Assembly (NCBI GenBank): GCA_948472605.1
Contig: CAOKUH010000002.1
Coordinates: forward strand, 1-33,174
Length of the DNA stretch: 33,174 nucleotides
Direction of reading: 5' to 3'
DNA from: an uncultured Mycoplasmatota bacterium
GTDB taxonomy: Bacteria; Bacillota_I; Bacilli_A; RF39; UBA660
Part shown: positions 1,453 through 25,849 of the stretch, one piece after another
Position numbering within the stretch: position 1 is the first letter of the stretch
How the letters are laid out: each line of letters opens with the position of its first letter
Notes under the pieces: model-generated
Told to the model about the DNA's origin: nothing
The model's input: only the letters and a program-made list of their open reading frames with translations
The model's database searches: none
Position numbers and translations under genes: made by a program

Positions 1453-2190
1453 GTGAAACAAAAGCTATTTTTGGATGTAGGAATTGATAAAATTGATGCT
1501 AAATATAAGTTAGAAGAAAAGAAAACTAAGGCTTTTAAAACAACTCATTATGTAGTTAGTAAAGAAAATAAAAGAGTAATAAAAAAAGCAATAGGAGATT
1601 ATTATACTATTTTATTTTCTTATGAAAATTTACTAACTAAAAAAACATCTTTAACAAAGGAAGTAGAAAGAATTTTAAAATGTTTTTTAAAACAATATCA
1701 AAAAACGAAAAAAGTTTTAATAGTTGGTATTGGCAATAAAGATGTTTTAGGAGATGCTTTAGGGGTTTTAACAACAGATAAAGTTATAGCAACAAATCAG
1801 TATCAAGATTTTTTAACAATACCTAAAGTAGCATTGTTTAACCCATCAGTAACGGATAAAACAGGGATTAATTCATTTAAACTTATTGAGATGGTTGTTA
1901 ATGACTTAAAACCAGATTTAATTATTATGATTGATTCACTAGCTACTAAAAGTGAAGAATATTTAAATAGTGCTATTGAAATAAATGATGTAGGAATAAT
2001 ACCAGGAAGTGCTCTAAATTCAGCAAAAGAAATAACTTACAAAACATTTAATATACCAGTACTTTCTGTAGGGGTACCACTTTGTTTAGATTTAAATAAA
2101 AAATTTTATACAAGTGTTTTTATAAATGAAGTGATTAATTCATCATCAAATATAATTGCAGAAGCTTTAAATAATGTTTTTATTAAATAA
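1453..2190 (+). CDS. gpr: germination protease GPR (spore endopeptidase), compact form
   Basis: GPR-family blocks are LIVGIGNKDVLGDALG, KPDLIIMIDSLA, INDVGIIPGSA and IPVLSVGVP. GTG start with an AGAGGAG RBS. The gene is divergent from rpsT and upstream of spoIIP, as I recall for Bacillus. Confidence 0.85.
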   Translation: MKQKLFLDVGIDKIDAKYKLEEKKTKAFKTTHYVVSKENKRVIKKAIGDYYTILFSYENLLTKKTSLTKEVERILKCFLKQYQKTKKVLIVGIGNKDVLGDALGVLTTDKVIATNQYQDFLTIPKVALFNPSVTDKTGINSFKLIEMVVNDLKPDLIIMIDSLATKSEEYLNSAIEINDVGIIPGSALNSAKEITYKTFNIPVLSVGVPLCLDLNKKFYTSVFINEVINSSSNIIAEALNNVFIK

Positions 2191-2258
2191 AATATTATTT
2201 TTTTTTTGACAATTTTTTTTCTTTAAAGTGTATATACTTAAGAAAAGGAAATGGTATT

Positions 2259-3206
2259 ATGGCAAAGAGATTGAAAACCAAAAGAAGATTAAAGTTTAGA
2301 TATAAAATAATATTTAGTATGTTAATAATTCTTTTGACTTTTGTTTATATATTTAATATTTTGTATAATAAGTTTTTAATAAATATTGATAATAATACGT
2401 TGATCAATCATTTAGTTGATTATAATTTAAATGTTAAAAAAACTCATAATGTTTTTTATGATATTATGAATTTAAGTAGTACTAATTTTTTACTTAAGTA
2501 TACTTTAGGTGTTGATAATATTAGGGATGAGCCAACGGAGTCAATAAATGGTATTGAATATGGTTATATTGATGATCCTTATAAAACAGAAGTAACGGAA
2601 CCAATTCTATATATTTATAATACACATCAATCAGAAGGATATCAAAAAAGTAATAATGCATCTTATAATATTACGCCGAGTGTTTTAATGGCTTCTTATA
2701 TCCTTCGAGAGTCCTTGAATGATTTAGGAATACCTTCTTTAGTTGAGACTAATGATATTGCGGAATTATTACGAATTAATAGTTGGAAATATTCTTACTC
2801 CTATGCAGCATCTAAGATTCTTTTAGAAGATGCAATAAAGAAAAATAATAGTTTAACTTATTTTATTGATTTGCATCGAGATGCGGCCTCTTATGAAGCA
2901 ACTACCACCACGATAGATAATAAAAAATATGCTAAAGTGTTATTTGTGATTGGAAAAGATCATGAAAATTATGAAAAAAATTTGAAAATGGCAGAAACAA
3001 TTAATAATTATCTTAAAGAAAAATATCCTAGTATAACAAGAGGAATATCGATAAAAGGAGGAAGTGGAGTAAATGGTATTTATAACCAAAATGTAAGTCC
3101 TAATGCTATTTTAGTTGAATTAGGAGGCCAGTTTAATAATATAACAGAGGTAAATAATACAATAAGTGTTTTAGCTGATGCTATTTATAGTTATGTGAAA
3201 GGATGA
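2259..3206 (+). CDS. spoIIP: stage II sporulation protein P (SpoIIP amidase/endopeptidase)
   Basis: N-terminal TM helix, then the SpoIIP blocks ILYIYNTHQSEGY, FIDLHRDA, VLFVIGKDHENYEKN and ILVELGGQFN. Synteny with gpr supports the call. Confidence 0.9.
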   Translation: MAKRLKTKRRLKFRYKIIFSMLIILLTFVYIFNILYNKFLINIDNNTLINHLVDYNLNVKKTHNVFYDIMNLSSTNFLLKYTLGVDNIRDEPTESINGIEYGYIDDPYKTEVTEPILYIYNTHQSEGYQKSNNASYNITPSVLMASYILRESLNDLGIPSLVETNDIAELLRINSWKYSYSYAASKILLEDAIKKNNSLTYFIDLHRDAASYEATTTTIDNKKYAKVLFVIGKDHENYEKNLKMAETINNYLKEKYPSITRGISIKGGSGVNGIYNQNVSPNAILVELGGQFNNITEVNNTISVLADAIYSYVKG

Positions 3207-3653: not shown

Positions 3654-3681
3654 TTAGTTTGTAATATTTGAATGCTATAAT
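3654..3681 (+). promoter_or_regulatory. putative sigma-A promoter for dnaE-polC
   Basis: Extended -10 TGcTATAAT (TG 3673-3674, TATAAT 3676-3681). The -35 is weak (TTAGTT at 3654-3659, 16-nt spacer). Confidence 0.35.
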
Positions 3682-3721
3682 ATTTATAGCAAAAAACCAT
3701 ATGGGGGAGGGAATTTTAAAA

Positions 3722-6625
3722 ATGTATGTTCCACTTAAAATAACTACTGATTATACTTTATTAAAAAGTATGATAAAAATTGATGACTTAATAAAATTCT
3801 CTTTGGAAAATAAAATTGAAGCATTAGGGATATGTGATGAGAACTTATCAGGAGTGATGGAGTTTTATAATAAATGTTTAGAAAATAATATAAAGCCAAT
3901 AATTGGGTTAGAAATAGTAATTGAAGAGTTGTCCATTTATTTATATGCAAAAGATTATATAGGCTATCAAACCTTACTTAAATTAAATACAATTAGTGGA
4001 GAAAGAATAAATTTAGATGATTTAAGAAAATATAGCGATAATGTTTTAGTAATTTTACCATACAAATCTATATCTTTTTATAGTAAATTAAATAATATTT
4101 ATGAAGATATTTATTTAGGCTATCAAACAGAGATAGAAAAAGCATCTTGTTTATTAATCTCTTCTAATATAGTTTTTATAAATAATATTTGTGCATTAAA
4201 AAAGGAAGATACTAGCTATTTGAACTATTTAAATATGATTAGGGAAGATACAAAGATAAATGATTATACTTTTAAAAATTATGATGTAAATAGTTTTATT
4301 CTGGATATTTCTTTAGACGATGAAAAAAAGATAAATGAAGTAGCAAATTTATTAAATGTTGTGATACCAAAGTATAACTTGCATGTTCCTACATATAATG
4401 AAGAAATAGAAGATTCTTTTGCCTATTTATGTAATTTAACGAAAAAGGGACTTAGTAAAAGATTAAATGATAATGTTTTAGAAAGTTATACTAAACGTTT
4501 AGAATATGAATTAGATGTTATAAAAAAAATGGGTTTTGTAGATTACATTTTAATAGTTTATGATTACGTTTTGTTTGCTAAAAAAAATAATGTATTTGTT
4601 GGTCCTGGAAGAGGAAGTGCAGCAGGATCATTAGTTTGTTATACTCTAGGAATAACCGATATTGATCCTTTAAAATATAATTTATTATTTGAAAGATTTT
4701 TAAATTCGGAACGAATAACTATGCCTGATATTGATATAGACTTTGAAAATACAAAAAGGGGAGAAGTAATTCAGTATATAAAATCGCGTTATGGTAAAGA
4801 TAAAGTGGCTTCAATATTAACATTTGCCACTTTAAAAAGTAAATTAGTAATTAGAGAAATAGCGAGAGTTTTAGATTATAATGATAAAGATTTAGAAATT
4901 TTGGTAAAAGAAATATCTTCGACGATGAATTTAGAAGAGAATCTGAAACAAAATAATGTTTTAGCTAAATTGACCAATAAAGATTTAAAAAAAATATATA
5001 AGATTGCTTTGAAATTAGAGGGTTTAAAAAAGAATATTTCAACTCATGCAGCAGGTGTTGTTATATCTAATACTCCTTTAGAAACACTTATTCCTATTAT
5101 TCAGATAAATGATACAACATTAACTGGTATAACAATGGAATATTTAGAAGAATTAGGTCTTCTAAAAATGGATTTATTAGCTATAAAAAATTTAACTATT
5201 ATTGCTAATATTTTAGAATTAATAAAAAAAGATACGGGAAAAAATATTGCATTAAATAAAATTGATTTAAATGACCAACAAGTAATAAATTTATTTACTA
5301 AAGCAGATACTACAGGGATATTTCAATTTGAAAGTAATGGAATGCGTAATTTTTTACAAAAATTAAAGCCTCGTAACTTTAATGACTTAATTGCATCTCT
5401 TGCTCTTTATCGACCAGGTCCTATGGATAATATTGGCACCTTTATTAAAAGAAAAGAAGGTTTGGAAAAAATAGATTATTTAGTTCCATCATTAGAGCCA
5501 ATCTTAAAAGAAACAGAGGGAATTATTGTATATCAAGAACAAGTAATGCAAATATTAGTAACTATTGGAAGTTATAGTTTTGCTGAGGCTGATCTTGTAA
5601 GAAGGGCTATGAGTAAAAAGAAAAAAGATGTGATGGCTTTAGAACGAGATAAATTTATTAAGCGAGCAATAAAAAATGGATATAAAAAAGAGGTGAGTGA
5701 AAAACTATTTAATTATATTTTAAAGTTTGCAGGATATGGCTTTAATAAATCTCATTCAGTATCTTATGCTTTAATTGGTTATCAGATGGCCTTTTTAAAA
5801 GTTAAATTTCCCAAATATTTCATAACAAATTTACTTAATATGAGTATTGCATCCGAGGCTAAAACAAAAGAATATTTAATAGAAGCTAAACGCCATAATT
5901 TAAATATTATTCATCCCGATATAAATATTAGTTATTATGATTATGTAATAAGAGGTAATGATTTAGTCTTACCTTTATCTATCATTAAAGGGATAAATAG
6001 AATAACTATCGAAAATATAATAGATGAAAGAACAAAAAATGGTGAATTTTTAGACTTTGTTTCTTTTATTAAAAGAATGTATAATAAAAATATAAATGAA
6101 AAAATAATAATTATATTAATAAATGCAGGAGTATTTTCTAATTTTGCTAATAAAACAACTTTAAAAGAAAACTTAAGTATAGTTTTAAACTATGCATCAA
6201 TTGCATCAGAAATAGACTCACCATTAATAATGCCTCCTGTATTAAAAGAATATGAAGAAAATGAAATAGAACATGCTTTAGAACTAGAAAGTTTTGGATT
6301 TTATATAACTAATCATCCTACTAGTGTCTATCATGATAATAGTTTGACTAAATTAAATAATATAGAAAATTCTTTTGATAAATATATAAAATGTATAGTT
6401 CTTATCGAAACAATTAAAAGAACTAAAACAAAAAATAATGAAGATATGGCTTTTATTGCAGCAAGTGATGAAACAGGAATTTCTAATTTCGTCGTCTTTA
6501 ATCGCCAGATAAGATTGTTAGATAATTTAAAACCTAAAGATATAGTTATGATTCAGGGAAGAGTAACAAAAAGATTTGATAAATATCAAATAAATGTTAA
6601 TAATATAATAAAAAATAAAAAGTAG
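3722..6625 (+). CDS. dnaE: DNA polymerase III alpha subunit, DnaE type
   Basis: DnaE blocks are GPGRGSAAGSLVCYTLGITDIDPL, MPDIDIDF, HAAGVVIS, GLLKMDLLAIKNL and FNKSHSVSYA, with a C-terminal OB-like segment. The ATG at 3722 is preceded by a GGGGGAGGG RBS. The TTG at 3668 in the ORF track is an upstream extension. Confidence 0.95.
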   Translation: MYVPLKITTDYTLLKSMIKIDDLIKFSLENKIEALGICDENLSGVMEFYNKCLENNIKPIIGLEIVIEELSIYLYAKDYIGYQTLLKLNTISGERINLDDLRKYSDNVLVILPYKSISFYSKLNNIYEDIYLGYQTEIEKASCLLISSNIVFINNICALKKEDTSYLNYLNMIREDTKINDYTFKNYDVNSFILDISLDDEKKINEVANLLNVVIPKYNLHVPTYNEEIEDSFAYLCNLTKKGLSKRLNDNVLESYTKRLEYELDVIKKMGFVDYILIVYDYVLFAKKNNVFVGPGRGSAAGSLVCYTLGITDIDPLKYNLLFERFLNSERITMPDIDIDFENTKRGEVIQYIKSRYGKDKVASILTFATLKSKLVIREIARVLDYNDKDLEILVKEISSTMNLEENLKQNNVLAKLTNKDLKKIYKIALKLEGLKKNISTHAAGVVISNTPLETLIPIIQINDTTLTGITMEYLEELGLLKMDLLAIKNLTIIANILELIKKDTGKNIALNKIDLNDQQVINLFTKADTTGIFQFESNGMRNFLQKLKPRNFNDLIASLALYRPGPMDNIGTFIKRKEGLEKIDYLVPSLEPILKETEGIIVYQEQVMQILVTIGSYSFAEADLVRRAMSKKKKDVMALERDKFIKRAIKNGYKKEVSEKLFNYILKFAGYGFNKSHSVSYALIGYQMAFLKVKFPKYFITNLLNMSIASEAKTKEYLIEAKRHNLNIIHPDINISYYDYVIRGNDLVLPLSIIKGINRITIENIIDERTKNGEFLDFVSFIKRMYNKNINEKIIIILINAGVFSNFANKTTLKENLSIVLNYASIASEIDSPLIMPPVLKEYEENEIEHALELESFGFYITNHPTSVYHDNSLTKLNNIENSFDKYIKCIVLIETIKRTKTKNNEDMAFIAASDETGISNFVVFNRQIRLLDNLKPKDIVMIQGRVTKRFDKYQINVNNIIKNKK

Positions 6626-6640
6626 AAAGAGTTGTTGTTG

Positions 6641-9600
6641 ATGAATGAAGAATTAAAACGTTTTTTTAATAGTATTTTATATACTCCTAAAGAAGATATA
6701 TATACAAATGCAGAAGTAAAAAAAGTTATATATATAAAACAAAAAGACACTTATGAAGTGCATTTAAATATTCTAGATGTTTTACCAATGAATGAAGTAA
6801 TTGAACTTTTTAATCATGCTAAAGAAGGTATAAAAAAAGAAAAGAAATGTATGATACGTCTTAATTATCAAAATGTTACTTCTAAAGATGTTTTAAATTA
6901 TTTAAAAGAATTAATAAATGAATTAATATCTAAAAGACCATCTTTAGTAAATTTAAAAGATGCTAAGTTAAGTATTGATGATGAAATTATTACGATAGAA
7001 GTAGGAACAAAATTAGAAAGTTTAGAAGTAAAAAAAGAAGCTAAATGGTTAACTAATAAATTATTTATATATGGTTTAGGAGAATATGAAATAACAAGTA
7101 TTTTAAATGAAGAGTTGAATAAACAAGTAAAGGAAGATATTGAAAAATCTTATATTAATGAAATACCAATAATTGAAAATAATTCTAATAAAGAGGAAAG
7201 TTCTATTGAAGGGGATGTCACAACTATTAGTAATATAATTGGAGAAATACCAAAAGTTATAATTGAGGCATATATCTTTGGAATAGAAGAAAAAGAGTTT
7301 GAGAAAACTAATTTGATTACTTTAAAAATCAGTGATAAAACTAATAGTTTAATTGCGAAAATGTTTAAAAGAGATAAGAGTGATTTTAAAAATACTTTGA
7401 AGCAGTTAAAAGAAGGAAATTGGTATCGTTTTCAAGGTAAAGTTGAATTTGATACTTTTAGTAAAGATCATGTTTTAAGTATTAGAAAATTCGAAAGTAT
7501 ACCTAGTAAAGAAGAAATAACGAAAGAATTAACTGATAATCCTAGAGTAGAATTACATGCTCATACAATGATGAGTGCTATGGATGGGGTTATTGAAGCT
7601 AAAGCTCTTGTTAAACATGCAATCAAAATGGGTCAGAAATCAATAGCTGTAACAGATCATAATTGTTGTCAAAGTTTTCCTGAATTATATCATGCTGTTT
7701 GTGATAATAATAAAGGTAAAGAAGGTAGTGATCGATTTAAAGTATTATATGGTGTAGAGATAAATGTAGTAAATGATGATGTAGATATAATATTTAATAA
7801 TAAAACTTATAATTTGCTAGAAGATACTTTTGTTGTATTCGATACAGAAACCACTGGTTTTTATGCTGGCTCTGATCAAATGATAGAAATTGGGGCTGTA
7901 AAAATAAAAAATGGAGAGATAATTGAAAGATTTGATGAATTAATTGATCCTCATCGTCCTATTCCTAAAAAAATAACTGAATTAACTTTTATAACAGATG
8001 AAATGTTAAGTGGTTGTGATAATGAAGAAAATGTTACAAAGAGATTTCTAGAATGGGTAGGGGATTTACCTTTAATTGCTCATAATGCTAAATTTGATAT
8101 TTCATTCATGAAAGCTGCTTGTAATAAATATAATTTAAAGGAATTTTCTTATACTGTTTTAGATACGATGAGTATAGCTCGTATGTTGCATCCAGAATGG
8201 CCTAATCATAAATTACAAACTTTAACTAAAAAACTTGATATTCCTTGGGATGAAGATAAACATCATAGAGCAGATTATGATGCTGAGGGTACAGCTTTAG
8301 CTTATTATAAAATGGCCAAATCTTTGTATGACCAAAATATAAGCACAACAGATGAATTATTAGCAAATATTGATATTGAATCATTGATTAAATTTTCTTA
8401 TCCTTTTCATGCAACAGCAATAGCTAAAAATAGAGAAGGCTTAAAGAATTTATTTAAAATAATATCTCTTGCTAATACTAAATATTTATATAAAAATGAA
8501 CAACCAAAAATTCCTCGTAAAGAATTTAATGAGCTTAGAGAAGGATTACTTATAGGCTCTGGATGTATTAATGGCGAAATATTTGACAAAGCTAAAGGCT
8601 TAGAAGATGAAGAATTAGTTAATATGATGAATTTTTATGATTATATTGAAGTTCAACCAGTTAGTGCATTCTCTCATTTAATTGGACCAGAGGCTAGATT
8701 TTTAACTACTAATGAAGCTGAAAATTATTTAAGTAGAATAATTAGAGTAGGTAAAGAAGCTGGTAAGCCAGTTGTTGTAACAGGAGATGTTCATAATTTA
8801 AAAAAGGAAGATAAAATTTATCGTGAAATCATTATTAACCAAAAATTCAATGGTAAATTACATCCTTTAAAACGTAGAGGAATAGAAGTGCCTAATCAGT
8901 ATTTAAAAACTACAGAAGAAATGATGGAAGATTTTTCATTTTTAGATGAAGAGATTAGGAAAGAAATAATTATTGATAATACTAATAAAATTGCTGATAT
9001 GGTAGAAGAAATAGAAGTTATTATTGATACTCCTAATCCTTTTGCTCCTAGAATTCCCAATTCTGTTATGACTATGACAGAGCTTGTTTATAGTAAAGCG
9101 GATGAATTATATGGGAATCCTTTACCCTTAAATATCGAAGAACGTTTGGCCAAAGAGTTATATGGGGAAAGTATTATTAATGCTTGTAAAAGCGAAGAAC
9201 GTGATGAGGTTATGGCATTTAAGTTAGTTCATGACATCATTTTAAAAGGTAAAGAAGCTGTAAAAGATATGGTGAAAAAACATTTAAGTGAAGATGATAT
9301 AGCTGATAAAACTTTAGAGGAAATAGATAAATTAGCTTATAAAAATTTAGGTGGTATTATTGGAGCTAATTATGATGTTATTTATCTTATTGCCCAAAAA
9401 TTAGTTAAGCATTCAAATGATGAAGGGTTTTTAGTAGGATCACGTGGTTCTGTTGGGTCATCTTTTGTTGCTAATATGATGGGGATAACTGAGGTTAATA
9501 GTATGCCTGCTCATTATCGTTGTCCAAAATGTAAAATGAGTATTTTTAATGACGATGAAAACAAAGCTTTAGGTATTACTTATTCTTGTGGGTTCGATTT

Positions 9601-11140
9601 ACCAGATAAGAATTGTCCAAATTGTAATAGTAAAATGACTAAAGATGGTCATGATATACCTTTTGCTACCTTTTTAGGATTTAATGCCGATAAAGTTCCT
9701 GATATAGATCTTAATTTTTCAGATTTAAATCAAGCTAGTGCTCATGAATATACTAAGGTATTATTTGGTGAAGATAATGTTTATAGAGCTGGAACAATAG
9801 GAACAGTTGCTGAAAAAACTGCTATTGGCTATGTTCTTGGTTATTGTGAAGAAAAAAATATTATAATGCGTAAGATAGAGGTAGAGCGTCTTGCTAAAGG
9901 TTGTACAGGGGTAAAAAGAACAACAGGTCAACATCCTGGAGGTATAGTTGTTATTCCTGATTATATGGAAGTATTTGATTTTACCCCATTTCAATATCCT
10001 GCTGAAGATCCAACAAGTGCTTGGCGAACAACACATTTTGATTATCATGCTATCGATGCTGATGTTTTAAAGTTAGATATTTTAGGACATACAGATCCAA
10101 CTCAACTTAGAATGATTCAAGACTTAACAGGAGATGATGTTACAGAAGTACCACTTGATGATAAAGCGACAATGTCTTTATTTACGGGAACTAAATCTTT
10201 AGGAGTTACGAAAGATCAAATTATGTGTGATACAGGAACTCTAGGAGTACCTGAGTTTGGAACACCATTTACTATTCAACTTGTTAAAGATGCTAAACCA
10301 ACTACATTTGCGGAACTTGTTAAAATATCAGGACTTGCTCATGGAACAGATGTTTGGCTGGGTAATGCTCAAGAATTAATTCAAAAAAATATTTGTCCAT
10401 TTAAGGATGTTATAGGATGTCGTGACGATATTATGGTTGAGTTAATGAATAAAGGTGTTCCGCCATTAAAAGCATTTAAGATTATGGAGTTTGTCCGTAA
10501 AGGTAAAGCTGGTAAAGATCCTGAAACTTGGGCAGGATTTGTGGAAACTTTAAAAGAATATAATATTCCAGATTGGTATATTATATCGTGTCAAAAAATA
10601 AAATACATGTTTCCTAAAGCTCATGCAGCAGCTTATGTAACTAGTGCTTTTCGTATAGCTTGGTATAAAGTTCATAAACCTTTAGTGTATTATTGTACTT
10701 ATTTTTCTACAAGATTTAATGACTTTGATCCTGATTGTATGGTTAAAGGATATGATGCTATAAAAGCTAAAATGTTAGAAATTCAAAGTAAAGGCTATGA
10801 TGCTACAAATAAAGACCAATCTTTATTAGAAACTTTAAAACTTGCCTTAGAAGCAACAGCTAGAGGAGTAAAATTTAAAATGATTGATATTAAAAAAAGT
10901 GATGGTTATAATTTTATAATGGATGAAGATGAAAATGCTATCATATTGCCTTTTAGAAGTTTAGATGGTCTAGGAGATGCTGTTGCTACAAAAATAATGG
11001 AAGAACGTAGTGAAAAAGCTTTTTATAGTATTGAAGACTTTAGCAATCGTGGTAAAGTAAATCAATCAACTATTGAAAAAATGCGTATTTTAGGTATATT
11101 TGAAGGTATGCCTGAAACAAGTCAATTAAGTTTATTTTAA
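6641..11140 (+). CDS. polC: DNA polymerase III PolC type (with 3'-5' exonuclease)
   Basis: PHP motif ELHAHTMMSAMDG. DEDDh exonuclease motifs FVVFDTETTGF, AHNAKFDISF and HRADYDAEG. Zn module CPKCKMS...CPNCNSK. Polymerase core VPDIDLNFS and GQHPGGIVV. The ATG at 6641 is preferred over the three TTG codons at 6632-6640. Confidence 0.97.
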   Translation: MNEELKRFFNSILYTPKEDIYTNAEVKKVIYIKQKDTYEVHLNILDVLPMNEVIELFNHAKEGIKKEKKCMIRLNYQNVTSKDVLNYLKELINELISKRPSLVNLKDAKLSIDDEIITIEVGTKLESLEVKKEAKWLTNKLFIYGLGEYEITSILNEELNKQVKEDIEKSYINEIPIIENNSNKEESSIEGDVTTISNIIGEIPKVIIEAYIFGIEEKEFEKTNLITLKISDKTNSLIAKMFKRDKSDFKNTLKQLKEGNWYRFQGKVEFDTFSKDHVLSIRKFESIPSKEEITKELTDNPRVELHAHTMMSAMDGVIEAKALVKHAIKMGQKSIAVTDHNCCQSFPELYHAVCDNNKGKEGSDRFKVLYGVEINVVNDDVDIIFNNKTYNLLEDTFVVFDTETTGFYAGSDQMIEIGAVKIKNGEIIERFDELIDPHRPIPKKITELTFITDEMLSGCDNEENVTKRFLEWVGDLPLIAHNAKFDISFMKAACNKYNLKEFSYTVLDTMSIARMLHPEWPNHKLQTLTKKLDIPWDEDKHHRADYDAEGTALAYYKMAKSLYDQNISTTDELLANIDIESLIKFSYPFHATAIAKNREGLKNLFKIISLANTKYLYKNEQPKIPRKEFNELREGLLIGSGCINGEIFDKAKGLEDEELVNMMNFYDYIEVQPVSAFSHLIGPEARFLTTNEAENYLSRIIRVGKEAGKPVVVTGDVHNLKKEDKIYREIIINQKFNGKLHPLKRRGIEVPNQYLKTTEEMMEDFSFLDEEIRKEIIIDNTNKIADMVEEIEVIIDTPNPFAPRIPNSVMTMTELVYSKADELYGNPLPLNIEERLAKELYGESIINACKSEERDEVMAFKLVHDIILKGKEAVKDMVKKHLSEDDIADKTLEEIDKLAYKNLGGIIGANYDVIYLIAQKLVKHSNDEGFLVGSRGSVGSSFVANMMGITEVNSMPAHYRCPKCKMSIFNDDENKALGITYSCGFDLPDKNCPNCNSKMTKDGHDIPFATFLGFNADKVPDIDLNFSDLNQASAHEYTKVLFGEDNVYRAGTIGTVAEKTAIGYVLGYCEEKNIIMRKIEVERLAKGCTGVKRTTGQHPGGIVVIPDYMEVFDFTPFQYPAEDPTSAWRTTHFDYHAIDADVLKLDILGHTDPTQLRMIQDLTGDDVTEVPLDDKATMSLFTGTKSLGVTKDQIMCDTGTLGVPEFGTPFTIQLVKDAKPTTFAELVKISGLAHGTDVWLGNAQELIQKNICPFKDVIGCRDDIMVELMNKGVPPLKAFKIMEFVRKGKAGKDPETWAGFVETLKEYNIPDWYIISCQKIKYMFPKAHAAAYVTSAFRIAWYKVHKPLVYYCTYFSTRFNDFDPDCMVKGYDAIKAKMLEIQSKGYDATNKDQSLLETLKLALEATARGVKFKMIDIKKSDGYNFIMDEDENAIILPFRSLDGLGDAVATKIMEERSEKAFYSIEDFSNRGKVNQSTIEKMRILGIFEGMPETSQLSLF

Positions 11141-11152
11141 AATATTTATTTG

Positions 11153-11186
11153 TGCTATATTATTAGTTAATATAGCATTTTTTTTT
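11153..11186 (+). terminator. Rho-independent terminator after polC
   Basis: Perfect 10-bp stem TGCTATATTA (11153-11162) / TAATATAGCA (11168-11177) with a 5-nt loop, then a run of 9 T. Confidence 0.85.
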
Positions 11187-11353
11187 GACATTCTTAATGG
11201 GTCTAAATAAAGGATATATCCAAGATATATAAAATAAAGAAAATAGCAATTAGGTTCAAAAAGGTTCTTACAAAAATCTTATTCTAACTAAAATAGCAAT
11301 TATTTTGAAATTGGAACCCTAAAATTTAATAAAAGTGTTGGTGGTGTACTTTT

Positions 11354-11644
11354 AGGCTTAGCAAATTATTTGTTTTACCTGAAGTAAAAGGGGTTACTAA
11401 AAGAAATGTTGAAAGAATGGTACAATTTTATAAAACATATAAAGATGACAAGATTGCGACACCACTGGTGACGCAATTAAGTTGGACAAATAATTTATTA
11501 ATTTTAAGTAGTTCAAAATCAAGTGAAGAAAGGCATTTTTATCTAAAATTATCTATTAAGAAAAATTATTCAAAAAGAAAGTTAGATAGAAAAATTTCCT
11601 CAGAATGTCATCTATGTTTTCTAATATGTCTACAAATTCCTTAA
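11354..11644 (+). pseudogene. remnant of a DUF1016 (YhcG-like PDDEXK nuclease family) gene, N-terminal portion only
   Basis: The frame reads RLSKLFVLPEVKGVTKRNVERMVQFYKTYKDDKIATPLVTQLSWTNNLLILSSSKSSEERHFYLKLSIKKNYSKRKLDRKISSE. This follows the DUF1016 N-terminal pattern (GFS.RNL..M..FY..Y ... QLSW.H...LL....... R.FY ....... WS.R.L.RQI.S). There is no start codon or RBS at the homology start, stops lie upstream, and the nuclease domain is absent. Confidence 0.6.
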
Positions 11645-11750
11645 TTTATGTCAAAGACGAAACAATACAAAATTGGATTTTGACATCAGATAATGCTCGT
11701 CCAACATCTTGGACAACAGAAAATGTAATTATAAAAATATAATATTATAT

Positions 11751-11790
11751 AAAATATCTTGAAAGTTTTTGAGATATTTTTATTTTTTTG
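11751..11790 (+). terminator. AT-rich hairpin plus T tract upstream of the bacteriocin transporter (terminator or attenuator-like)
   Basis: AAAATATCT (11751-11759) / AGATATTTT (11772-11780) with a 12-nt loop, followed by TTATTTTTTT. The stem is AT-only, so stability is low. Confidence 0.25.
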
Positions 11791-11861
11791 AAAAAAGTTT
11801 GCTTATAAAAAAAGGAAATATCAAATTTGCAGTGTATATATATAGTAGGAGGCAAAATAAA

Positions 11862-13916
11862 ATGAAAAAAAATGTAATAGTAAGACAACAAGATTTAAAA
11901 GATTGTGGAGTTTGTTCACTACTTTCAATAATTAAATACTATGGTGGCTTTGTACCTTTAGAAATATTAAGACAAGATACAAATACAACAATAGAAGGCA
12001 CAACTGCTTATCATCTTGTTAAGACAGCTAGAAATTATGGCTTTGATGCCTATGGTATGAAATTAGAAAAAATAGACGAACTAAAAGATGTTATCCTTCC
12101 AATTATTGCTCATGTAGTTATTAATAACTTAAATCATTTTTTAGTAATTTATGAAATTAAAGAAAATAGCATGATTTTAATGGATCCTAGTAAAGGTAAA
12201 GTGAAAATTTCAAAGACTGAATTTATTTCAATTTGGACTGGTAATATTATTATCCTTTATCCTAAACGCAAACTACCCCAAATTATAAATGAAAATCATT
12301 TGGTCCAACTTGTTAAAGAAGTCTTTAAGCAAGAAAAGATTATAATTTTAAGAATTTTACTTTTAACAGCTATTTTAACATTCATTACAATCTTAACAGG
12401 TTTTTACTTTAAAATAGGGATTAATTTCATTAGTATGAATAAAGAAAAAAATGTAATAACTCAACTAATTCTACTATTTATGTGCTTATATTTAGTAAAA
12501 GAACTAATTTATTATTTCCGTAATCATTTTAAAAACTATTTAAATAAAAATCTAGATGGAATTATTTATTATAATTTTTTAAAGCATTTATTTTTGCTTC
12601 CTAATTCTTTTGTTAAAGATAGAACAACTGGAGAAATTATGATTAGAATTAAAGAACTTCAAAATGTTAAAGAAGTATTCACAGAAATTCTAATTACGAT
12701 TTTATTGGATTCTATCTTAGCAATAAGTGTAGGAATTATCCTTTTTAACATTCATCAAAAATTATTTTTTATTCTTTGTTTATTTGTTTTTGTTTATGTT
12801 ATATTTGGAATAATTTCAAGTAAAATTATTTATAAAAAGGCTTTTGCTGTTAATGAATCAGAGGTTAATTTAGAATCAACAATAATTGAAAATATTGATT
12901 CGTTTATAAGTATTAAGAATTTAAATATTGTCAAATTAGTTATGAAAAAAATTGAAATATATTTAACTAAGTATTTAAGTTCTATTTATGATTTAAATAA
13001 TAATTTTTCTAAGACTAACTCTATAGCTAATTTTTTAGAAGAATTTTTAAGCTTTAGCATTATCTCTTTTGGTTTAATTTTAATATTACAAGAAAAATGT
13101 TCATTAATTAATTTGGTTACTTTTGAAAGTTTAGTTGGTTTCTTTTTCACCCCATTTAAATCAATAATAAATTTATTGCCCAACTATAACTATGTCAAAA
13201 TAGAAATTAATAAAATAAATGATTTTTATAATATTTTAGAAGAGAGAGAAAATGAAGGATTAAAAGAATTTTCTTATGGAGATATTGAAATAACTGATTT
13301 AACTTTTTCTTACAATGATTTTTCTGAATTATTTAGTGGCTTAACTTTAACAATAAAGAAAAATTCATGTGTCTTATTTAAAGGGCAAAGTGGTTGTGGG
13401 AAAAGTACATTGTGCCAAATTATAAGTCGTTTGATAGACGTAAAAAATAATAATATTAGAATTGGGAATGTGAGTTTAAACGACTATAGTTTAAGCACTA
13501 TTAGAAAAAATATTACTTATGTTGGTCAAAAAGAAAATTTAATTCAAGATTCAATTAAAAATAATATTATTTTAGAGCGAGATATATTAGAGAAAGAATA
13601 TTTAGAAATATTAAGAATTTGTGAAATAGAAGCGATTGTTGCTAAAAAGCCATTAAGATATGAAACTTTTCTTTCGAAAGATTCAATAAATATATCTGGT
13701 GGTGAAAAACAAAGAATAATATTAGCAAGAGCCCTATTAAATAATTTTCAAATATTAGTTTTGGATGAAGCATTAAGCGAAGTTAATAGTGATTTAGAAA
13801 TTAAAATTATAAAAAATATAAAGGAATACTTTAAAGATAAAATAATTATTTATGTTAGTCATAAGAAACATGATAGATATTTTGATAAAGTTTATGATTT
13901 TGGAGAATTGCTATGA
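11862..13916 (+). CDS. bacteriocin-processing ABC transporter with N-terminal C39 peptidase domain (PCAT / AMS family)
   Basis: C39 catalytic context QQDLKDCGVCSL ... NHFLVIYEI ... MDPS, then six-helix TMD-type hydrophobic stretches. Walker A GQSGCGKST, ABC signature ISGGEKQR, Walker B ILVLDEA. The ATG at 11862 has a GTAGGAGG RBS. The TTG at 11769 in the ORF track is an extension. Confidence 0.93.
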   Translation: MKKNVIVRQQDLKDCGVCSLLSIIKYYGGFVPLEILRQDTNTTIEGTTAYHLVKTARNYGFDAYGMKLEKIDELKDVILPIIAHVVINNLNHFLVIYEIKENSMILMDPSKGKVKISKTEFISIWTGNIIILYPKRKLPQIINENHLVQLVKEVFKQEKIIILRILLLTAILTFITILTGFYFKIGINFISMNKEKNVITQLILLFMCLYLVKELIYYFRNHFKNYLNKNLDGIIYYNFLKHLFLLPNSFVKDRTTGEIMIRIKELQNVKEVFTEILITILLDSILAISVGIILFNIHQKLFFILCLFVFVYVIFGIISSKIIYKKAFAVNESEVNLESTIIENIDSFISIKNLNIVKLVMKKIEIYLTKYLSSIYDLNNNFSKTNSIANFLEEFLSFSIISFGLILILQEKCSLINLVTFESLVGFFFTPFKSIINLLPNYNYVKIEINKINDFYNILEERENEGLKEFSYGDIEITDLTFSYNDFSELFSGLTLTIKKNSCVLFKGQSGCGKSTLCQIISRLIDVKNNNIRIGNVSLNDYSLSTIRKNITYVGQKENLIQDSIKNNIILERDILEKEYLEILRICEIEAIVAKKPLRYETFLSKDSINISGGEKQRIILARALLNNFQILVLDEALSEVNSDLEIKIIKNIKEYFKDKIIIYVSHKKHDRYFDKVYDFGELL

Positions 13917-14341
13917 AAGAGTATTTACGATTTAATCTGAATAGTCATTTATATAAAAATTCTAAAAAATATAGCATTACTTGGTTTATTCCTTTAATAA
14001 TAATTATTTTTATAATAATATTTTCTTTAACTCATAGTGTCTATAATGTCTATGATGTAAGTGCTATATATAAATGTGATCAAAAATGCACTCTAGACTT
14101 TTATATTAGTATTCTGGATGGTTTTACTTATGATTATATTACTATTAATAATAAAACTTATGAAATAGATAATATACTTTATGGTGATATAGAACTAAAT
14201 GAAAATAATGTGGGAATTCAAAAAATAGCACTTGAAGTAAAAGAGTATGAAGGGAAAAATAATGAAGTTGTAAAGTTAAAAATATTTAAAAACAAAGAAA
14301 AAATGTTAAAAAAAATATATGAAATCATTAAAGAAAGGTGA
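13913..14341 (+). CDS. small single-pass membrane protein translationally coupled to the transporter (accessory or immunity candidate)
   Basis: ATGA start/stop overlap with the transporter gene. One TM helix (ITWFIPLIIIIFIIIFSL). 142 aa with no recognisable catalytic motif, and much shorter than HlyD/LcnD-type accessory proteins. Confidence 0.6.
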   Translation: MKEYLRFNLNSHLYKNSKKYSITWFIPLIIIIFIIIFSLTHSVYNVYDVSAIYKCDQKCTLDFYISILDGFTYDYITINNKTYEIDNILYGDIELNENNVGIQKIALEVKEYEGKNNEVVKLKIFKNKEKMLKKIYEIIKER

Positions 14342-14351
14342 GGTATTAAAA

Positions 14352-14489
14352 ATGGTTTTAAAAAAAGAAGAATTAAATGAAGTAATAGGAGGAGGAATTA
14401 GTCTTTCTATACTAGGAATAATTGGAGCTATTGGTGTATTTATAGCTGGTGTAGTTGATGGATTTCTGCGTCCACTACGCTGTAATTAA
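14352..14489 (+). CDS. double-glycine-leader bacteriocin precursor A (45 aa; not in the ORF track)
   Basis: Translation: MVLKKEELNEVIGG|GISLSILGIIGAIGVFIAGVVDGFLRPLRCN. The leader has the canonical GG-leader positions (L-12, E-8, L-7, V-4, G-2, G-1). The RBS AGGTGAGG lies upstream. The mature part is Gly/Ile-rich, hydrophobic and cationic at the C-terminus. The gene lies directly downstream of the C39 transporter. Confidence 0.8.
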   Translation: MVLKKEELNEVIGGGISLSILGIIGAIGVFIAGVVDGFLRPLRCN

Positions 14490-14498
14490 GGAGGATTT

Positions 14499-14654
14499 AT
14501 GAATTTAAATGAAACTGAATTATTTTGCATAAAAGGTGGAGCTATAACCTCAACTTTCCTAAATTCTGTTGCTAGAGTTATAACTACAATTTTAGATTTA
14601 GGAAGAACAGTAGGTTCTTCAATTAGAAGAATTTATAGTAAAAATTATTGTTAA
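14499..14654 (+). CDS. double-glycine-leader bacteriocin precursor B (51 aa; not in the ORF track)
   Basis: Translation: MNLNETELFCIKGG|AITSTFLNSVARVITTILDLGRTVGSSIRRIYSKNYC. The leader has L-12, E-8, L-7, I-4, G-2, G-1. A strong AGGAGG RBS sits 4 nt before the ATG. The gene starts 9 nt after peptide A. Confidence 0.8.
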   Translation: MNLNETELFCIKGGAITSTFLNSVARVITTILDLGRTVGSSIRRIYSKNYC

Positions 14655-14720
14655 CTATATTGCTTAAATAAATTAATTATTATATAATTAATCTAGTTTA
14701 AGAATAGAGGAGGGATATAT

Positions 14721-15470
14721 ATGAAGAATAACAAAGGGTTTATTGCTATTTCTTTAATATATTCCTTTTTCTTAATTTTTATTATAACGCTTTTGATGAT
14801 TGTAAGTAATTATGCTAAAAATCGCGTACTTTTAAATGAAGTGAAAAATAGTACACAAGAATATTTGAATAATTTAGCAGGTTTTAATCCCGTTTATTTA
14901 GTAAATAAAAACTATAGTGTAAATGAAGCTGTTTTATATATAGATGAAAATTGGAAAGTTTTAAAAGATGAAGGAGAGTTTGTAACTTTAATTTTAAATA
15001 GAGCTTTAAATGTGACTGAAATAAATAGAGCTTTAACTAATAATAGTTTAACAGGTGTTAGTAATTCTAATAAAACATTAATGTGTGGTAATGAGCCAAA
15101 TCATTCTATCTGTAATTATAAAAAAACTGGTACAACAATAGAATATGCTTATTATAATTGGAATATTAGTATAGCTTATAAAGTTGTTCAAGATTGGTTT
15201 TATAATAATCCTTCTTTACAAAAAGCATCATCTATAGGAAGTCTTAAAAATATGAGTTTTTCTGATAATATAAAAAATTATTCCGATTTTATAAGAATTC
15301 CTATAGCTCAAGAATTTTCTATAATAAATAATACTAATATTTGGTATTTAACTAGTTCAAGTAGAACAGATGGTATCAGTTACAATAATATTGGGGGCAC
15401 AAATGTAAGTACACATAATAATTATAAAGAAATAAGACCAGTTATATCTGTAAAAAAATTTACTTCGTAA
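14721..15470 (+). CDS. hypothetical exported/membrane-anchored protein with prepilin-like (ComGG-like) N-terminus
   Basis: GGAGGG RBS. The N-terminus MKNNKGFIAISLIYSFFLIFIITLLMIV resembles class III (prepilin) signal/anchor segments of minor pseudopilins such as ComGG (RGFIYPAVLF, as I recall) but lacks Glu at +5. The rest is Asn/Ser-rich with a Cys pair (MCGNEPNHSICNY). Confidence 0.55.
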   Translation: MKNNKGFIAISLIYSFFLIFIITLLMIVSNYAKNRVLLNEVKNSTQEYLNNLAGFNPVYLVNKNYSVNEAVLYIDENWKVLKDEGEFVTLILNRALNVTEINRALTNNSLTGVSNSNKTLMCGNEPNHSICNYKKTGTTIEYAYYNWNISIAYKVVQDWFYNNPSLQKASSIGSLKNMSFSDNIKNYSDFIRIPIAQEFSIINNTNIWYLTSSSRTDGISYNNIGGTNVSTHNNYKEIRPVISVKKFTS

Positions 15471-16263
15471 TTAAATTTAGAAATTGGACAATTATATAAC
15501 TTAAAATTAAGATTATTATATAAATTAAAGATTTACTAATATCTAAAAAGTTAAAAGGAATAATAATTAAGGAGCTCATTAAAACCATTCCTACAATTAA
15601 ACTCATGAAAGGAATACGATGTTTTTTTAAGAAATATAAAGAAAATTTGCTTCCTAAATAAAAACCTAACATATCACCAACCAAGTAAAATATAAGAGGA
15701 AGAATAAATATTAAAGTGCCAAAATTTAGATTTGCAAGAAAAGATTTATATAAAAAATATGGTCCTAATATCATCATAATCATTGATCCAGATATTCCTG
15801 GTAAGATAGTAAAAAAGCCATCTATCATGCCACAAAATGCAAAGTAGATTAAGAAAAGAATTGTGATTTTGGGATAATCTATTATTACATGTGTAGGATT
15901 TATTGATATTGAAGATAACATAAAGATTATTATAGTGCCTATAACAAACCAAAATAAATTTGGCTTAATTTTTTCGCTATGAAAAAGTTCTGGAACAGAA
16001 AATAGAACAAAACCACTAAATAAAAGTAAAGTATAATTTGGGATAAAATAAAATAAGAGTTCAATAATTCTTGCAAATGTAATAGTACCTAAAATAACTC
16101 CTAATATCAGTTTTAAAATAAAAACTTTGTTTCCTTTTTGTTTAATATTACTTATAGCTTTTGCAACCTCATCATATTTTTTCATAATAACTAATATTGT
16201 TCCGCCGCTAATTCCGGGGATAAGACTTACAACACCAATTAAAAAACCTGTAAAAAAAATCAT
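15460..16263 (-). CDS. DUF368 family polytopic membrane protein (family linked to undecaprenyl-phosphate translocation)
   Basis: Duplicated signature LIPGISGGTILVIM ... ILPGISGSMIMMILG, with about 8 hydrophobic helices. The 3' end overlaps the convergent 14721..15470 gene by 11 nt. Confidence 0.85.
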   Translation of the reverse strand: MIFFTGFLIGVVSLIPGISGGTILVIMKKYDEVAKAISNIKQKGNKVFILKLILGVILGTITFARIIELLFYFIPNYTLLLFSGFVLFSVPELFHSEKIKPNLFWFVIGTIIIFMLSSISINPTHVIIDYPKITILFLIYFAFCGMIDGFFTILPGISGSMIMMILGPYFLYKSFLANLNFGTLIFILPLIFYLVGDMLGFYLGSKFSLYFLKKHRIPFMSLIVGMVLMSSLIIIPFNFLDISKSLIYIIILILSYIIVQFLNLITK

Positions 16264-23429: not shown

Positions 23430-23545
23430 AAAAAAGTGGTGAATCCAGCCATTAAATTGGAACTTAAAAAAGCGGTGAATCCAGCCATTAAATTGGAACT
23501 TAAAAAAGCGGTGAATCCAGCCATTAAATTGGAACTTAAAAAAGT
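23430..23545 (+). ncRNA. toxI: ToxI-like type III antitoxin RNA: 3 full + 1 partial tandem 36-nt repeats
   Basis: Exact 36-nt period: copies at 23430-23465, 23466-23501 and 23502-23537, with an 8-nt partial copy at 23538-23545. The unit is AAAAAAG(T/C)GGTGAATCCAGCCATTAAATTGGAACTT, and only one substitution (T in copy 1, C in copies 2 and 3) was seen. The array is noncoding and sits directly upstream of a terminator and a ToxN-family gene. Confidence 0.85.
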
Positions 23546-23580
23546 AAGATTAGAGACTCAACTCTAATCTTTAGTTATTT
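23546..23580 (+). terminator. hairpin terminator/attenuator between the repeat array and toxN
   Basis: 10-bp stem AAGATTAGAG (23546-23555) / CTCTAATCTT (23562-23571) with a 6-nt loop, followed by the interrupted T tract TAGTTATTT. A weak tail fits a leaky terminator, as described for ToxIN loci. Confidence 0.7.
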
Positions 23581-23605
23581 ATGATGGGAAAAGGGTTGAT
23601 ATAAA

Positions 23606-24115
23606 ATGATATTTAATTTAAAAATCGTTCAAGTAAATTCAGATTATTGTGATTATTTAAGAAAATTTGATAATCGTGTATCTTATAATAAATATGAAAA
23701 AGAATTAAGACCATTTGTGGGAATATTATTTAAAATAGATTGTTATGAATATTTTGCTCCATTATCAAGCCCTAAAAATAAACATAAAAAAATGAAAAAT
23801 ACAATTGATTTTCTTAAAATAAAAAATGGCGAACTTGGAGCTGTTAATTTTAATAATATGATACCAGTTTATGAAAAAAATTATTCTTTGATCAATTTAA
23901 ATAGAGAAAGTTTAACAAAAACAGAGTTTAAATATTGTAAATTATTAAAAGAACAATTATCTTGGTTAAATGAAAACTATGAGCAAGTAAAAAATAAATC
24001 TTCAAAACTATATAAATTATATATTGAAAAAAAATTATCTAATAATATAAAATCAAGATGTTGTAATTTTAAATTATTAGAAGAAAAATGTTTAGAATAT
24101 AATAATTATAAATAA
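23606..24115 (+). CDS. toxN: ToxN/AbiQ family type III toxin endoribonuclease
   Basis: 169 aa. Recalled similarity to Pectobacterium ToxN: YFAPLSSPKNKH vs YLAPLTSPKKWH, CNFKLLEEK vs CNFSLLEEK, and N-terminal ..SDYCDYLRKFDNRV.. vs ..SKYIEYLKEFDDKV.. Size and genetic context (repeats plus terminator upstream) also match. Confidence 0.9.
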   Translation: MIFNLKIVQVNSDYCDYLRKFDNRVSYNKYEKELRPFVGILFKIDCYEYFAPLSSPKNKHKKMKNTIDFLKIKNGELGAVNFNNMIPVYEKNYSLINLNRESLTKTEFKYCKLLKEQLSWLNENYEQVKNKSSKLYKLYIEKKLSNNIKSRCCNFKLLEEKCLEYNNYK

Positions 24116-25351: not shown

Positions 25352-25849
25352 ATGAATGAAAATTATGAAAAAAAATTATATGGACTAAATGATATTTTTA
25401 ATTCTAAAGAAAAATATACAATATCATTTCAACAAAATGGTTATATTTGGGACTATGAAGAATTAATTACTTTATTAGAAGAGGTTAAAAATATAAGTAA
25501 AAGTGATAAGGAATATTGTTTAGGAACATTATTTGTTGTTAAAAATAATGATGGCTACGAAGTTATTGAAGGTCATCAAAGATTTATAAATATTTATATA
25601 TTATTAAATTGTTTAGGGATAAATACTAATAGTATTTTAAAATTTACTTATTGTGAAAAGTCTAATTATACTTTAAATAATATAAAAAGTATAATATCTA
25701 GTATGGAATTAAATGATGATACTGATGAAAACATTTTAAGTACGATAAAAATTTTTAATCAAGAGATAGTTAAAAAAGATTTTAATAAAGAAGAATTCAA
25801 GAAAAAATTAGAAAAAACAGTTGTTTGTTTAGTTTTAGTATCTGCTTAG
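25352..25849 (+). CDS. DUF262-like (ParB/GmrSD N-terminal nuclease-related) protein, short and probably truncated/degenerate
   Basis: YTISFQQNGYIWDYEELITLLEEV and YEVIEGHQRFINIYILL follow the DUF262 pattern (Y.IP.YQR.Y.W ... L..D; IIDGQQRLTT), but with QR->QQ and DGQQR->EGHQR substitutions. At 165 aa it lacks any C-terminal (DUF1524/HNH-like) part. Confidence 0.5.
   Translation: MNENYEKKLYGLNDIFNSKEKYTISFQQNGYIWDYEELITLLEEVKNISKSDKEYCLGTLFVVKNNDGYEVIEGHQRFINIYILLNCLGINTNSILKFTYCEKSNYTLNNIKSIISSMELNDDTDENILSTIKIFNQEIVKKDFNKEEFKKKLEKTVVCLVLVSA

Follow-up and report, generated by a model that had tools for sequence, protein, structure and literature searches.

A conserved gene pair for double-glycine-leader peptides, a candidate two-peptide (class IIb-like) bacteriocin, in uncultured gut Bacilli

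We analyzed a 33,174-nucleotide (nt) stretch of DNA from an uncultured Mycoplasmatota bacterium (contig CAOKUH010000002.1, positions 1 to 33,174; here called the window), which contains two small adjacent genes, pepA and pepB, whose products carry double-glycine (GG) leaders. That the two genes encode an exported pair of GG-leader peptides appears to us close to certain. With moderate confidence, and judging from sequence comparisons, we also read the pair as an antimicrobial two-peptide (class IIb-like) bacteriocin belonging to a new sequence family. A reading made previously from the letters of the window (the sequence-only reading) had described two back-to-back open reading frames (ORFs) of 45 and 51 codons, with coordinates and translations that proved exact:

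14352..14489, + strand: pepA precursor gene, 45 amino acids (aa); leader 14352..14393; mature peptide 14394..14486, GISLSILGIIGAIGVFIAGVVDGFLRPLRCN
14499..14654, + strand: pepB precursor gene, 51 aa; leader 14499..14540; mature peptide 14541..14651, AITSTFLNSVARVITTILDLGRTVGSSIRRIYSKNYC
14335..14343, + strand: Shine-Dalgarno (SD) sequence of pepA, AAGGTGAGG, overlapping the stop codon of the upstream gene p142
14488..14494, + strand: SD sequence of pepB, AAGGAGG, read from the sequence

The two genes are in the same frame and are separated by 9 nt in the window. An SD sequence had been proposed for each ORF; both are present, and an SD-like motif is kept ahead of pepA in 29/29 distinct loci and ahead of pepB in 24/29, with the stop and start codons overlapping instead in the five loci that lack it. 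The leaders (MVLKKEELNEVIGG for pepA, MNLNETELFCIKGG for pepB) are 14 residues long and share the canonical spacing of such sequences, with L at -12, E at -8, L at -7, V or I at -4 and GG at -2/-1. This spacing, also described in the sequence-only reading, is nearly invariant among 27 (pepA) and 29 (pepB) distinct homologous leaders. A regular expression for it, [LIM]xxx[ED][LM]xx[IVL]xGG, finds two matches in the six-frame translation of the 33-kb window, both at pepA/pepB, while by chance a mean of 0.005 matches is expected and none of 200 dinucleotide-preserving shuffles gave two or more. For pepA, a start at ATG 14352 rather than at the upstream ATG 14319 is supported by the alignments, because it gives a 14-residue leader as in nearly all homologues (extremes 12-16) and has its own SD, and because the extension falls inside the upstream gene.

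Patterns of substitution confirm, as far as comparative sequence analysis can, that pepA and pepB are real genes under purifying selection. The median ratio of nonsynonymous to synonymous substitution (dN/dS, Nei-Gojobori method) is 0.29 for pepA and 0.26 for pepB (29 and 31 distinct DNA sequences, respectively), synonymous sites are near saturation, with variable third codon positions in 44/45 columns of pepA and 51/51 of pepB, and the mature regions are constrained at least as strongly as the leaders. Given the low dN/dS, the conserved SDs and the strict pairing of the two genes (see below), the ORFs are therefore conserved as coding in related loci, a check that the sequence-only reading had proposed. 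The idea that pepA and pepB are chance open frames in AT-rich intergenic DNA is effectively refuted: although the ORFs are only 45 and 51 codons long and runs without a stop are no rarity in a genome of 24.6% GC, chance would account neither for the purifying selection and the conserved SDs nor for a leader motif 400-fold over expectation and a family of 139 clusters.

Upstream of the pair lie an exporter gene, preceded by a promoter-like element, and the gene for a small membrane protein; a further membrane-anchored protein is encoded immediately downstream:

11812..11839, + strand: promoter-like element of two boxes (AAGGAAAT, then 11-12 nt, then ..TGTATAT), some 20-50 nt before the ATG of the exporter
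11862..13916, + strand: C39-peptidase ATP-binding cassette (ABC) exporter, of the peptidase-containing ABC transporter (PCAT) type, 684 aa from ATG 11862
13913..14341, + strand: p142, single-pass membrane protein of 142 aa, candidate accessory or immunity protein
14721..15470, + strand: p249, membrane-anchored protein of 249 aa, immediately downstream of pepB, link to the system uncertain

The sequence-only reading had placed the peptide genes directly downstream of a C39-peptidase ABC transporter. The exporter is there, with its catalytic residues, but it is not directly adjacent, as p142 lies between. It matches the Pfam domains Peptidase_C39 (131 bits), ABC_membrane (83 bits) and ABC_tran (84.5 bits), and its catalytic Q40, C46, H123 and D139 motifs are conserved in 29 homologues (numbering follows the 715-aa TTG-start ORF; subtract 31 for the protein that starts at ATG 11862). 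Over its full length it scores 377.5 bits against the NCBIfam model TIGR01193 (bacteriocin_ABC), below the cut-off of 523.85, and 314.9 bits against NF045998 (Mbov_0121-family C39 ABC transporters of Mollicutes), below the cut-off of 500. It is therefore best described as a divergent PCAT that belongs to neither curated family; it resembles the Mbov_0121 family over the full length, but the bacteriocin_ABC model scores higher. In one related metagenome-assembled genome (MAG) the exporter is split into two overlapping ORFs (locus L026, 3363..5418), by a frameshift or pseudogenization or by an assembly error, and the peptides are intact.

The exporter almost certainly starts at ATG 11862, and the listed TTG start at 11769 is probably spurious. 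Homologues begin MKKN(V/I)IVRQQD, and the TTG start is made unlikely by the conserved, promoter-like non-coding element that falls inside the extension. This element has the layout A-tract, AAGGAAAT, 11-12 nt, TGTATATAT, about 10 nt, TAGGAGG, ATG. In an upstream alignment of 24 distinct loci with differing upstream neighbors, the AGGAAA box is invariant and the TGTATATAT box conserved, and the two-box pattern occurs once in the window (0.08 expected) and once in each main-clade locus, at a constant position that L004-L025 share. We infer from this conservation that the element may be the promoter of the operon. Its first box resembles the sigma-H -35 consensus, RAGGAWWW. The second, -10-like box reads GTAT where sigma-H has GAAT, and we assign the element to no sigma factor. 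No intrinsic terminator was predicted within 11100..15600.

The pair is found well beyond this one genome. A word-indexed search of 5.8 billion proteins for close relatives recovered 7 clusters for pepA and 30 for pepB, a single one of which carried a source name, ‘hypothetical protein’. When one genome per GTDB species was scanned with a sequence pattern for pepB, 28 species proved to carry it; each is represented by a MAG, assigned to uncultured gut ‘Bacilli’, ‘Tenericutes’ or ‘Erysipelotrichaceae’ and obtained from mice, rabbits, ruminants or Hadza people. In all 35 loci examined, a pepA homologue lies upstream of pepB, at a distance of 8-17 nt or with a 1-nt overlap, and a C39 ABC exporter lies upstream of the peptide pair. 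A wider, exhaustive HMMER search of 1.84 billion cluster representatives used a profile of mature pepB only, since the generic leader could otherwise drive matches, and retrieved 139 clusters (50% identity) at E<=1e-3. Of these, 134 are peptides of at most 80 aa with a Gly-Gly-type site (GG, GA or GS) before the matched part, and the wide family shares the motif LN..(R/K)...(D/E)(L/I)G(R/K/Q)..G(S/T).(I/L)RR....C. None of 10 sampled wide-family clusters had a descriptive name in any source. One distant member occurs in 260 data blocks, and the contigs examined for it were human-gut metagenomes.

The distant loci carry the same module: the exporter, sometimes a membrane protein of about 147 aa, a pepA-like peptide and then a pepB-like peptide, the pepA-like C-terminus being recognizable as ...G(V/I)(I/F/L)DG(F/Y).(R/N)P(L/I/Q/T)(K/R)CN. 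In nine such loci from other lineages pepA again stands directly upstream of pepB, bringing the total to 44/44 informative loci, and in every one of these the two genes overlap or are separated by 8-17 nt. The exporters of the window and of one of these loci (L035) are just 32% identical and the pairing is nevertheless kept; the pairing is therefore old.

The two mature peptides are of different, complementary character. In the window, mature pepA has 31 aa, a grand average of hydropathicity (GRAVY) of 1.45 and a net charge of +1. The C-terminal half is invariant among homologues (A.G.FI.G..DG..RPL.CN, with the tail DG..RPL(K/R)CN), and from its sequence mature pepA is a hydrophobic glycine-zipper helix with a short cationic RPL(K/R)CN tail. 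Mature pepB, with 37 aa, a net charge of +4 and a hydrophobic moment of 0.69, is predicted to be a cationic amphipathic helix: in an AlphaFold2 (AF2) model from a 30-sequence alignment, the leader forms a short helix at residues 5-13, this helix breaks off at the GG site, and residues 18-47 make up one uninterrupted helix, with a predicted local distance difference test score (pLDDT) of 93-95 over residues 21-40. Compared with each other, pepA and pepB have GRAVY values of 1.27 vs 0.28, charges of 0 to +4 vs +3 to +6, and hydrophobic moments of 0.48 vs 0.69. The predicted monoisotopic masses are 3139.79 Da (pepA) and 4088.22 Da (pepB).

Each peptide also carries a GxxxG motif that is invariant in the alignments, G33-V-V-D-G37 in pepA and G35-R-T-V/I-G39 in pepB. 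The sequence-only reading had named GVVDG and GIIGAIG as motifs of this type. The first stands, but GIIGAIG is GxxGxxG rather than GxxxG, and the GRTVG of pepB, which lies inside the modeled helix 18-47, had been missed.

Another feature absent from the sequence-only reading is a cysteine near each C-terminus (pepA ...RPL(K/R)CN, pepB ...NYC). In 28 distinct pairs, both mature peptides have one Cys, and only one, close to the C-terminus, with a contig-end artefact as the sole exception. In the wide family, a Cys lies within the last eight residues in 131/134 small representatives. Two of the remaining three have it at the homologous position, ahead of a likely spurious extension, and the only Cys-less representative comes from a 550-bp contig with 1.4x coverage. 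Two Cys occur in the mature region in 16/127 representatives, and a pepB-like sub-family ends in CxC (L040, 1173..1343, MCRCK; L041, 739..909, MCGCR; L042, 1591..1812, LCACK).

Since both partners have a lone, near-invariant Cys, a disulfide might join the two peptides. As a check by covariation, we looked at the partners of the CxC-type pepB variants; these are single-Cys pepA peptides, so there is no 1:1 covariation of Cys. A disulfide between the two peptides is not known to us from any class IIb bacteriocin described so far; the class IIb review (PMC2850506) mentions disulfides in its reference list only. The role of the Cys could alternatively be a requirement for a free thiol. In the sequences themselves, both partners have the residue close to the C-terminus. 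Lactococcin B is an unmodified, thiol-dependent GG-leader class II bacteriocin whose single Cys matters for activity, so that a lone Cys may be conserved without forming a disulfide; unlike pepA/pepB, with a Cys in both partners, it is a one-peptide bacteriocin, and it shares no sequence similarity with them. A more elaborate proposal, to which we give little weight, is that the pair is not a conventional class IIb bacteriocin but a lineage-wide, vertically inherited secreted heteromer, joined or activity-gated through the C-terminal Cys and without a dedicated immunity gene, which might make it a covalent disulfide-linked or redox-switched toxin suited to the anaerobic gut.

These properties bear on whether the peptides act together. 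Several GG-leader peptides often share one exporter, and pepA and pepB could in principle be two independent one-peptide (class IId-like) bacteriocins that do so, a possibility with which the lack of Cys covariation, CxC-type pepB standing beside single-Cys pepA, agrees. We find it improbable in view of the strict co-occurrence and fixed order in 44/44 informative loci with exporters only 32% identical, the coupled or overlapping stop and start codons at some loci, and the correlated divergences of pepA and pepB (r 0.69). Mature pepA, moreover, is almost uncharged and as hydrophobic as a transmembrane (TM) segment (GRAVY 1.27), which would be unusual for a peptide acting solo from solution.

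Neither mature sequence corresponds to a named bacteriocin family, and the sequence-only reading had recognized neither: matches in Pfam, NCBIfam and the Protein Data Bank (PDB) all fall below threshold. One of them is between pepA and the NCBIfam model NF038034 (lactococcin G-beta/enterocin 1071B, lactGbeta_entB), at 28.0 bits against a cut-off of 37; mature pepA alone scores 14.4 bits (E 0.034), half of the score thus being driven by the leader, and pepB does not match this model. Against Pfam PF10439 (Bacteriocin_IIc, threshold 27.1), pepA scores 17.7 and pepB 12.4 bits, with no match to the mature regions, and pepA scores 15.3 bits against NCBIfam TIGR03949 (lactobin A/cerein 7B; cut-off 21.5). 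PepA thus resembles the PF10439 and TIGR03949 families in being a Gly-rich hydrophobic GG-leader peptide and matches them weakly, but its scores are below the cut-offs and largely leader-driven. Mature pepB has no Pfam or NCBIfam match at E<=10, and no PDB profile reached threshold with either mature peptide. We count the weak, leader-driven likeness to class II/IIb families (28, 17.7 and 15.3 bits) in favor of the bacteriocin reading. The signature motifs are not printed in any paper of the searchable literature, nor do they occur in the main text of the IIBacFinder gut survey (PMC12648112); the family may sit unnamed in an existing mining catalogue.

Bacteriocins are not the only cargo of such exporters. 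GG-leader exporters also process pheromones, which are short and diversify into pherotypes, and one or both peptides might be double-glycine pheromones of the ComC/BlpC type that serve quorum sensing. Such pheromones share the leader type and the exporter type with pepA/pepB, and the pepA leader gives a weak match to Pfam ComC (16.8 bits, cut-off 20.4). This match, however, is limited to the leader (residues 3-20), and the mature peptides, at 31-41 aa, are longer, membrane-like or amphipathic, and highly conserved between species. Neither the scanned ORFs of the window nor the Pfam-annotated gene tables of eight related loci contain a histidine kinase or response regulator, so that pepA/pepB, in contrast to ComC/BlpC, have no two-component system nearby; we count its absence from the window scans for the bacteriocin reading, and regard a pheromone role as highly improbable.

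As defined by Nissen-Meyer et al. (2010; PMC2850506), class IIb bacteriocins are encoded by neighboring genes of a single operon, have double-glycine leaders and their own ABC exporter with a small ‘accessory’ protein, show GxxxG (or AxxxA/SxxxS) in both peptides, and are helical and cationic or hydrophobic. Adjacency in one operon, the leader consensus, a dedicated exporter and a GxxxG in each peptide are all found at pepA/pepB, where cleavage and transport would follow the same route. The locus is like those of lactococcin G, enterocin 1071 and plantaricin EF/JK/S in having two adjacent small genes with GG leaders, a C39 exporter, an accessory-like protein, a GxxxG in each peptide and helical, cationic or hydrophobic products. 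It differs from them in its 14-residue leaders, just under the usual 15-30, in its unrelated mature sequences, in lacking a recognizable immunity gene and in the near-invariant C-terminal Cys of each peptide; its locus is, in addition, chromosomal, mainly vertically inherited and unusually conserved, and it is found not in lactic acid bacteria but in uncultured gut Bacilli that form spores.

On the strength of this point-by-point match to the class IIb definition (PMC2850506), we adopt the class IIb mechanism as a working proposal. The exporter gene, p142, pepA and pepB would be transcribed as one operon from the conserved promoter upstream of the exporter. The C39 domain of the exporter would cut the precursors after Gly-Gly, and the exporter would release the mature peptides. 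The helices of pepA and pepB would then associate in the target-cell membrane through their GxxxG faces (GVVDG and GRTVG), and the pair would permeabilize the membranes of competing gut Bacillota as a class IIb-like bacteriocin. We infer cleavage, export, heteromeric interaction and antimicrobial effect alike from the features of the genes. Every part of the earlier proposal of a probable two-peptide (class IIb-like) bacteriocin that can be tested in silico holds, and we leave the proposal at probable, in a modest sense of that word.

Several observations weigh against a bacteriocin. First, class IIb operons always contain an immunity gene (PMC2850506), and none is recognized here by Pfam, NCBIfam or fold. 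The candidates that we considered (p142, p249 and two ORFs of 59 and 137 aa in related loci) are each restricted to a clade, none being found family-wide, and the 59-aa and 137-aa ORFs are also without a match. Second, the module is chromosomal and lies among housekeeping and sporulation genes; a mobile-element origin was considered and rejected, as it has no match in plasmids, phages or IMG/VR viral contigs. Third, the divergence of the mature peptides tracks that of the exporter (Mantel r 0.62, p 0.0015) and of a flanking PopT-like gene (r 0.57, p 0.005), with a mean p-distance that is lower for the mature peptides (0.24) than for the exporter (0.32) and PopT (0.35). Inheritance of the module thus looks mainly vertical, and the pattern looks more like that of a conserved physiological function than of a typical accessory bacteriocin. 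Finally, there is no match of the mature regions to a known bacteriocin family in Pfam, NCBIfam or PDB profiles.

Most of these points would be accommodated if the pair were self-directed or physiological, either as a stationary-phase or sporulation-linked factor (of the cannibalism type or acting on the cell envelope) or as a conserved heteromeric membrane effector of the producer. Such a role would agree with mainly vertical inheritance, with mature peptides more conserved than the exporter and a housekeeping neighbor, and with the lack of a conserved immunity gene. It would also suit a chromosomal location among housekeeping and sporulation genes in all sampled clades, sporulation genes in all sampled hosts, and a lineage-wide promoter element of which one box is sigma-H -35-like. 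The -10-like box GTAT, however, does not fit the sigma-H GAAT, the sporulation neighbors may reflect merely the ordinary organization of Bacillota chromosomes, and anatomically the pair agrees with the class IIb definition point for point. We judge a self-directed or physiological role unlikely but, in consideration of the missing immunity gene, the chromosomal locus and the vertical inheritance, by no means negligible.

The best-placed immunity candidate of the family is the 59-aa ORF, which has two predicted TM segments and overlaps the stop codon of the pepB-like gene in a lineage prevalent in the human gut (L035, 6153..6332; also L036 and L037); it is absent from the window. The 137-aa multi-TM protein is encoded upstream in the L001 clade and confined to it. 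In the window itself, the start of p142 overlaps the stop codon of the exporter (ATGA), so that the two are translationally coupled, and its end lies 10 nt before pepA. There are 24 distinct p142 homologues, at the same position in the main clade and in L029-31, and p142 is missing from minimal loci, in which the exporter overlaps pepA. The protein matches no Pfam or NCBIfam family, and a 147-aa protein at the corresponding position of L035 is not significantly similar to it (E 0.27). An AF2 model built from three sequences only (pLDDT 71) has a TM helix at 25-40, a beta domain of six strands and, at the C-terminus, another helix; a Foldseek search of the PDB with it gave nothing at E<0.05, and the match to the MacA beta-barrel, at rank 44 with E 0.7, is too weak to identify p142 as a reduced HlyD-type accessory protein. 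Just past the TM helix, p142 has a CxxxC or CxxxxC pair (C55, C59) that is kept in the main clade and in L031. This Cys pair is absent from the L029 and L030 homologues, whose peptides keep their Cys, so that a thiol-oxidoreductase role seems unlikely.

The location of p249 downstream of pepB is conserved in the main clade only. Its N-terminus, KGFIAISLIYSFFL, is invariant across 16 homologues and resembles a type IV pilin-like signal without Glu at +5, and there is a conserved C-terminal IRPVI.VKK; the L012 homologue is expanded to 525 aa. No family match was found, the ComGE N-terminal score being 15.8 bits against a cut-off of 49. We do not count p249 as a component of the system, given its restriction to the main clade and its lack of relationship to the large downstream proteins of L038 and to the compared part of the L012 homologue.

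Elsewhere in the window, genes for the germination protease (Gpr) and SpoIIP at 1453..3206 show that the 24.6% GC host forms endospores, even though related MAGs are labeled ‘Tenericutes’. The genes for DnaE and PolC adjoin each other at 3668..11140. In the 630-bp gap between PolC and the exporter is a 75-aa ORF (11417..11644) whose match to the DUF1016 N-terminal domain is confined to the C-terminal half of that domain (62.6 bits, profile positions 72-135/137); it is apparently what remains of a YhcG/PDDEXK-type gene. At 23430..24115 stands a complete type III toxin-antitoxin (ToxIN-like) module. Its toxin ORF, ToxN, occupies 23606..24115 (169 bits vs Pfam PF13958); ahead of it, at 23430..23544, runs a 36-nt tandem repeat (3.2 copies, 98% matches), as would be expected of a ToxI antitoxin RNA. 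Near this module, a 165-aa ORF at 25352..25849 has the N-terminal domain only of a GmrSD-type restriction endonuclease (48.6 bits) and may be a truncated defence gene.

Putative class II bacteriocins are routine in genome mining; pepA/pepB stand out by the size and namelessness of the family, by their hosts and by their ease of testing, the peptides being short and unmodified and therefore accessible to chemical synthesis. The missing evident immunity gene and the invariant lone Cys would be concrete departures from the class IIb paradigm, with strong vertical conservation as a third atypical trait, and the unusually conserved mature sequences suggest a conserved target receptor. If active, pepA and pepB would represent a large, entirely unnamed family of two-peptide bacteriocins, with at least 139 clusters at 50% identity, produced by uncultured, small-genome, spore-forming gut Bacilli, about whose interbacterial antagonism almost nothing is known.

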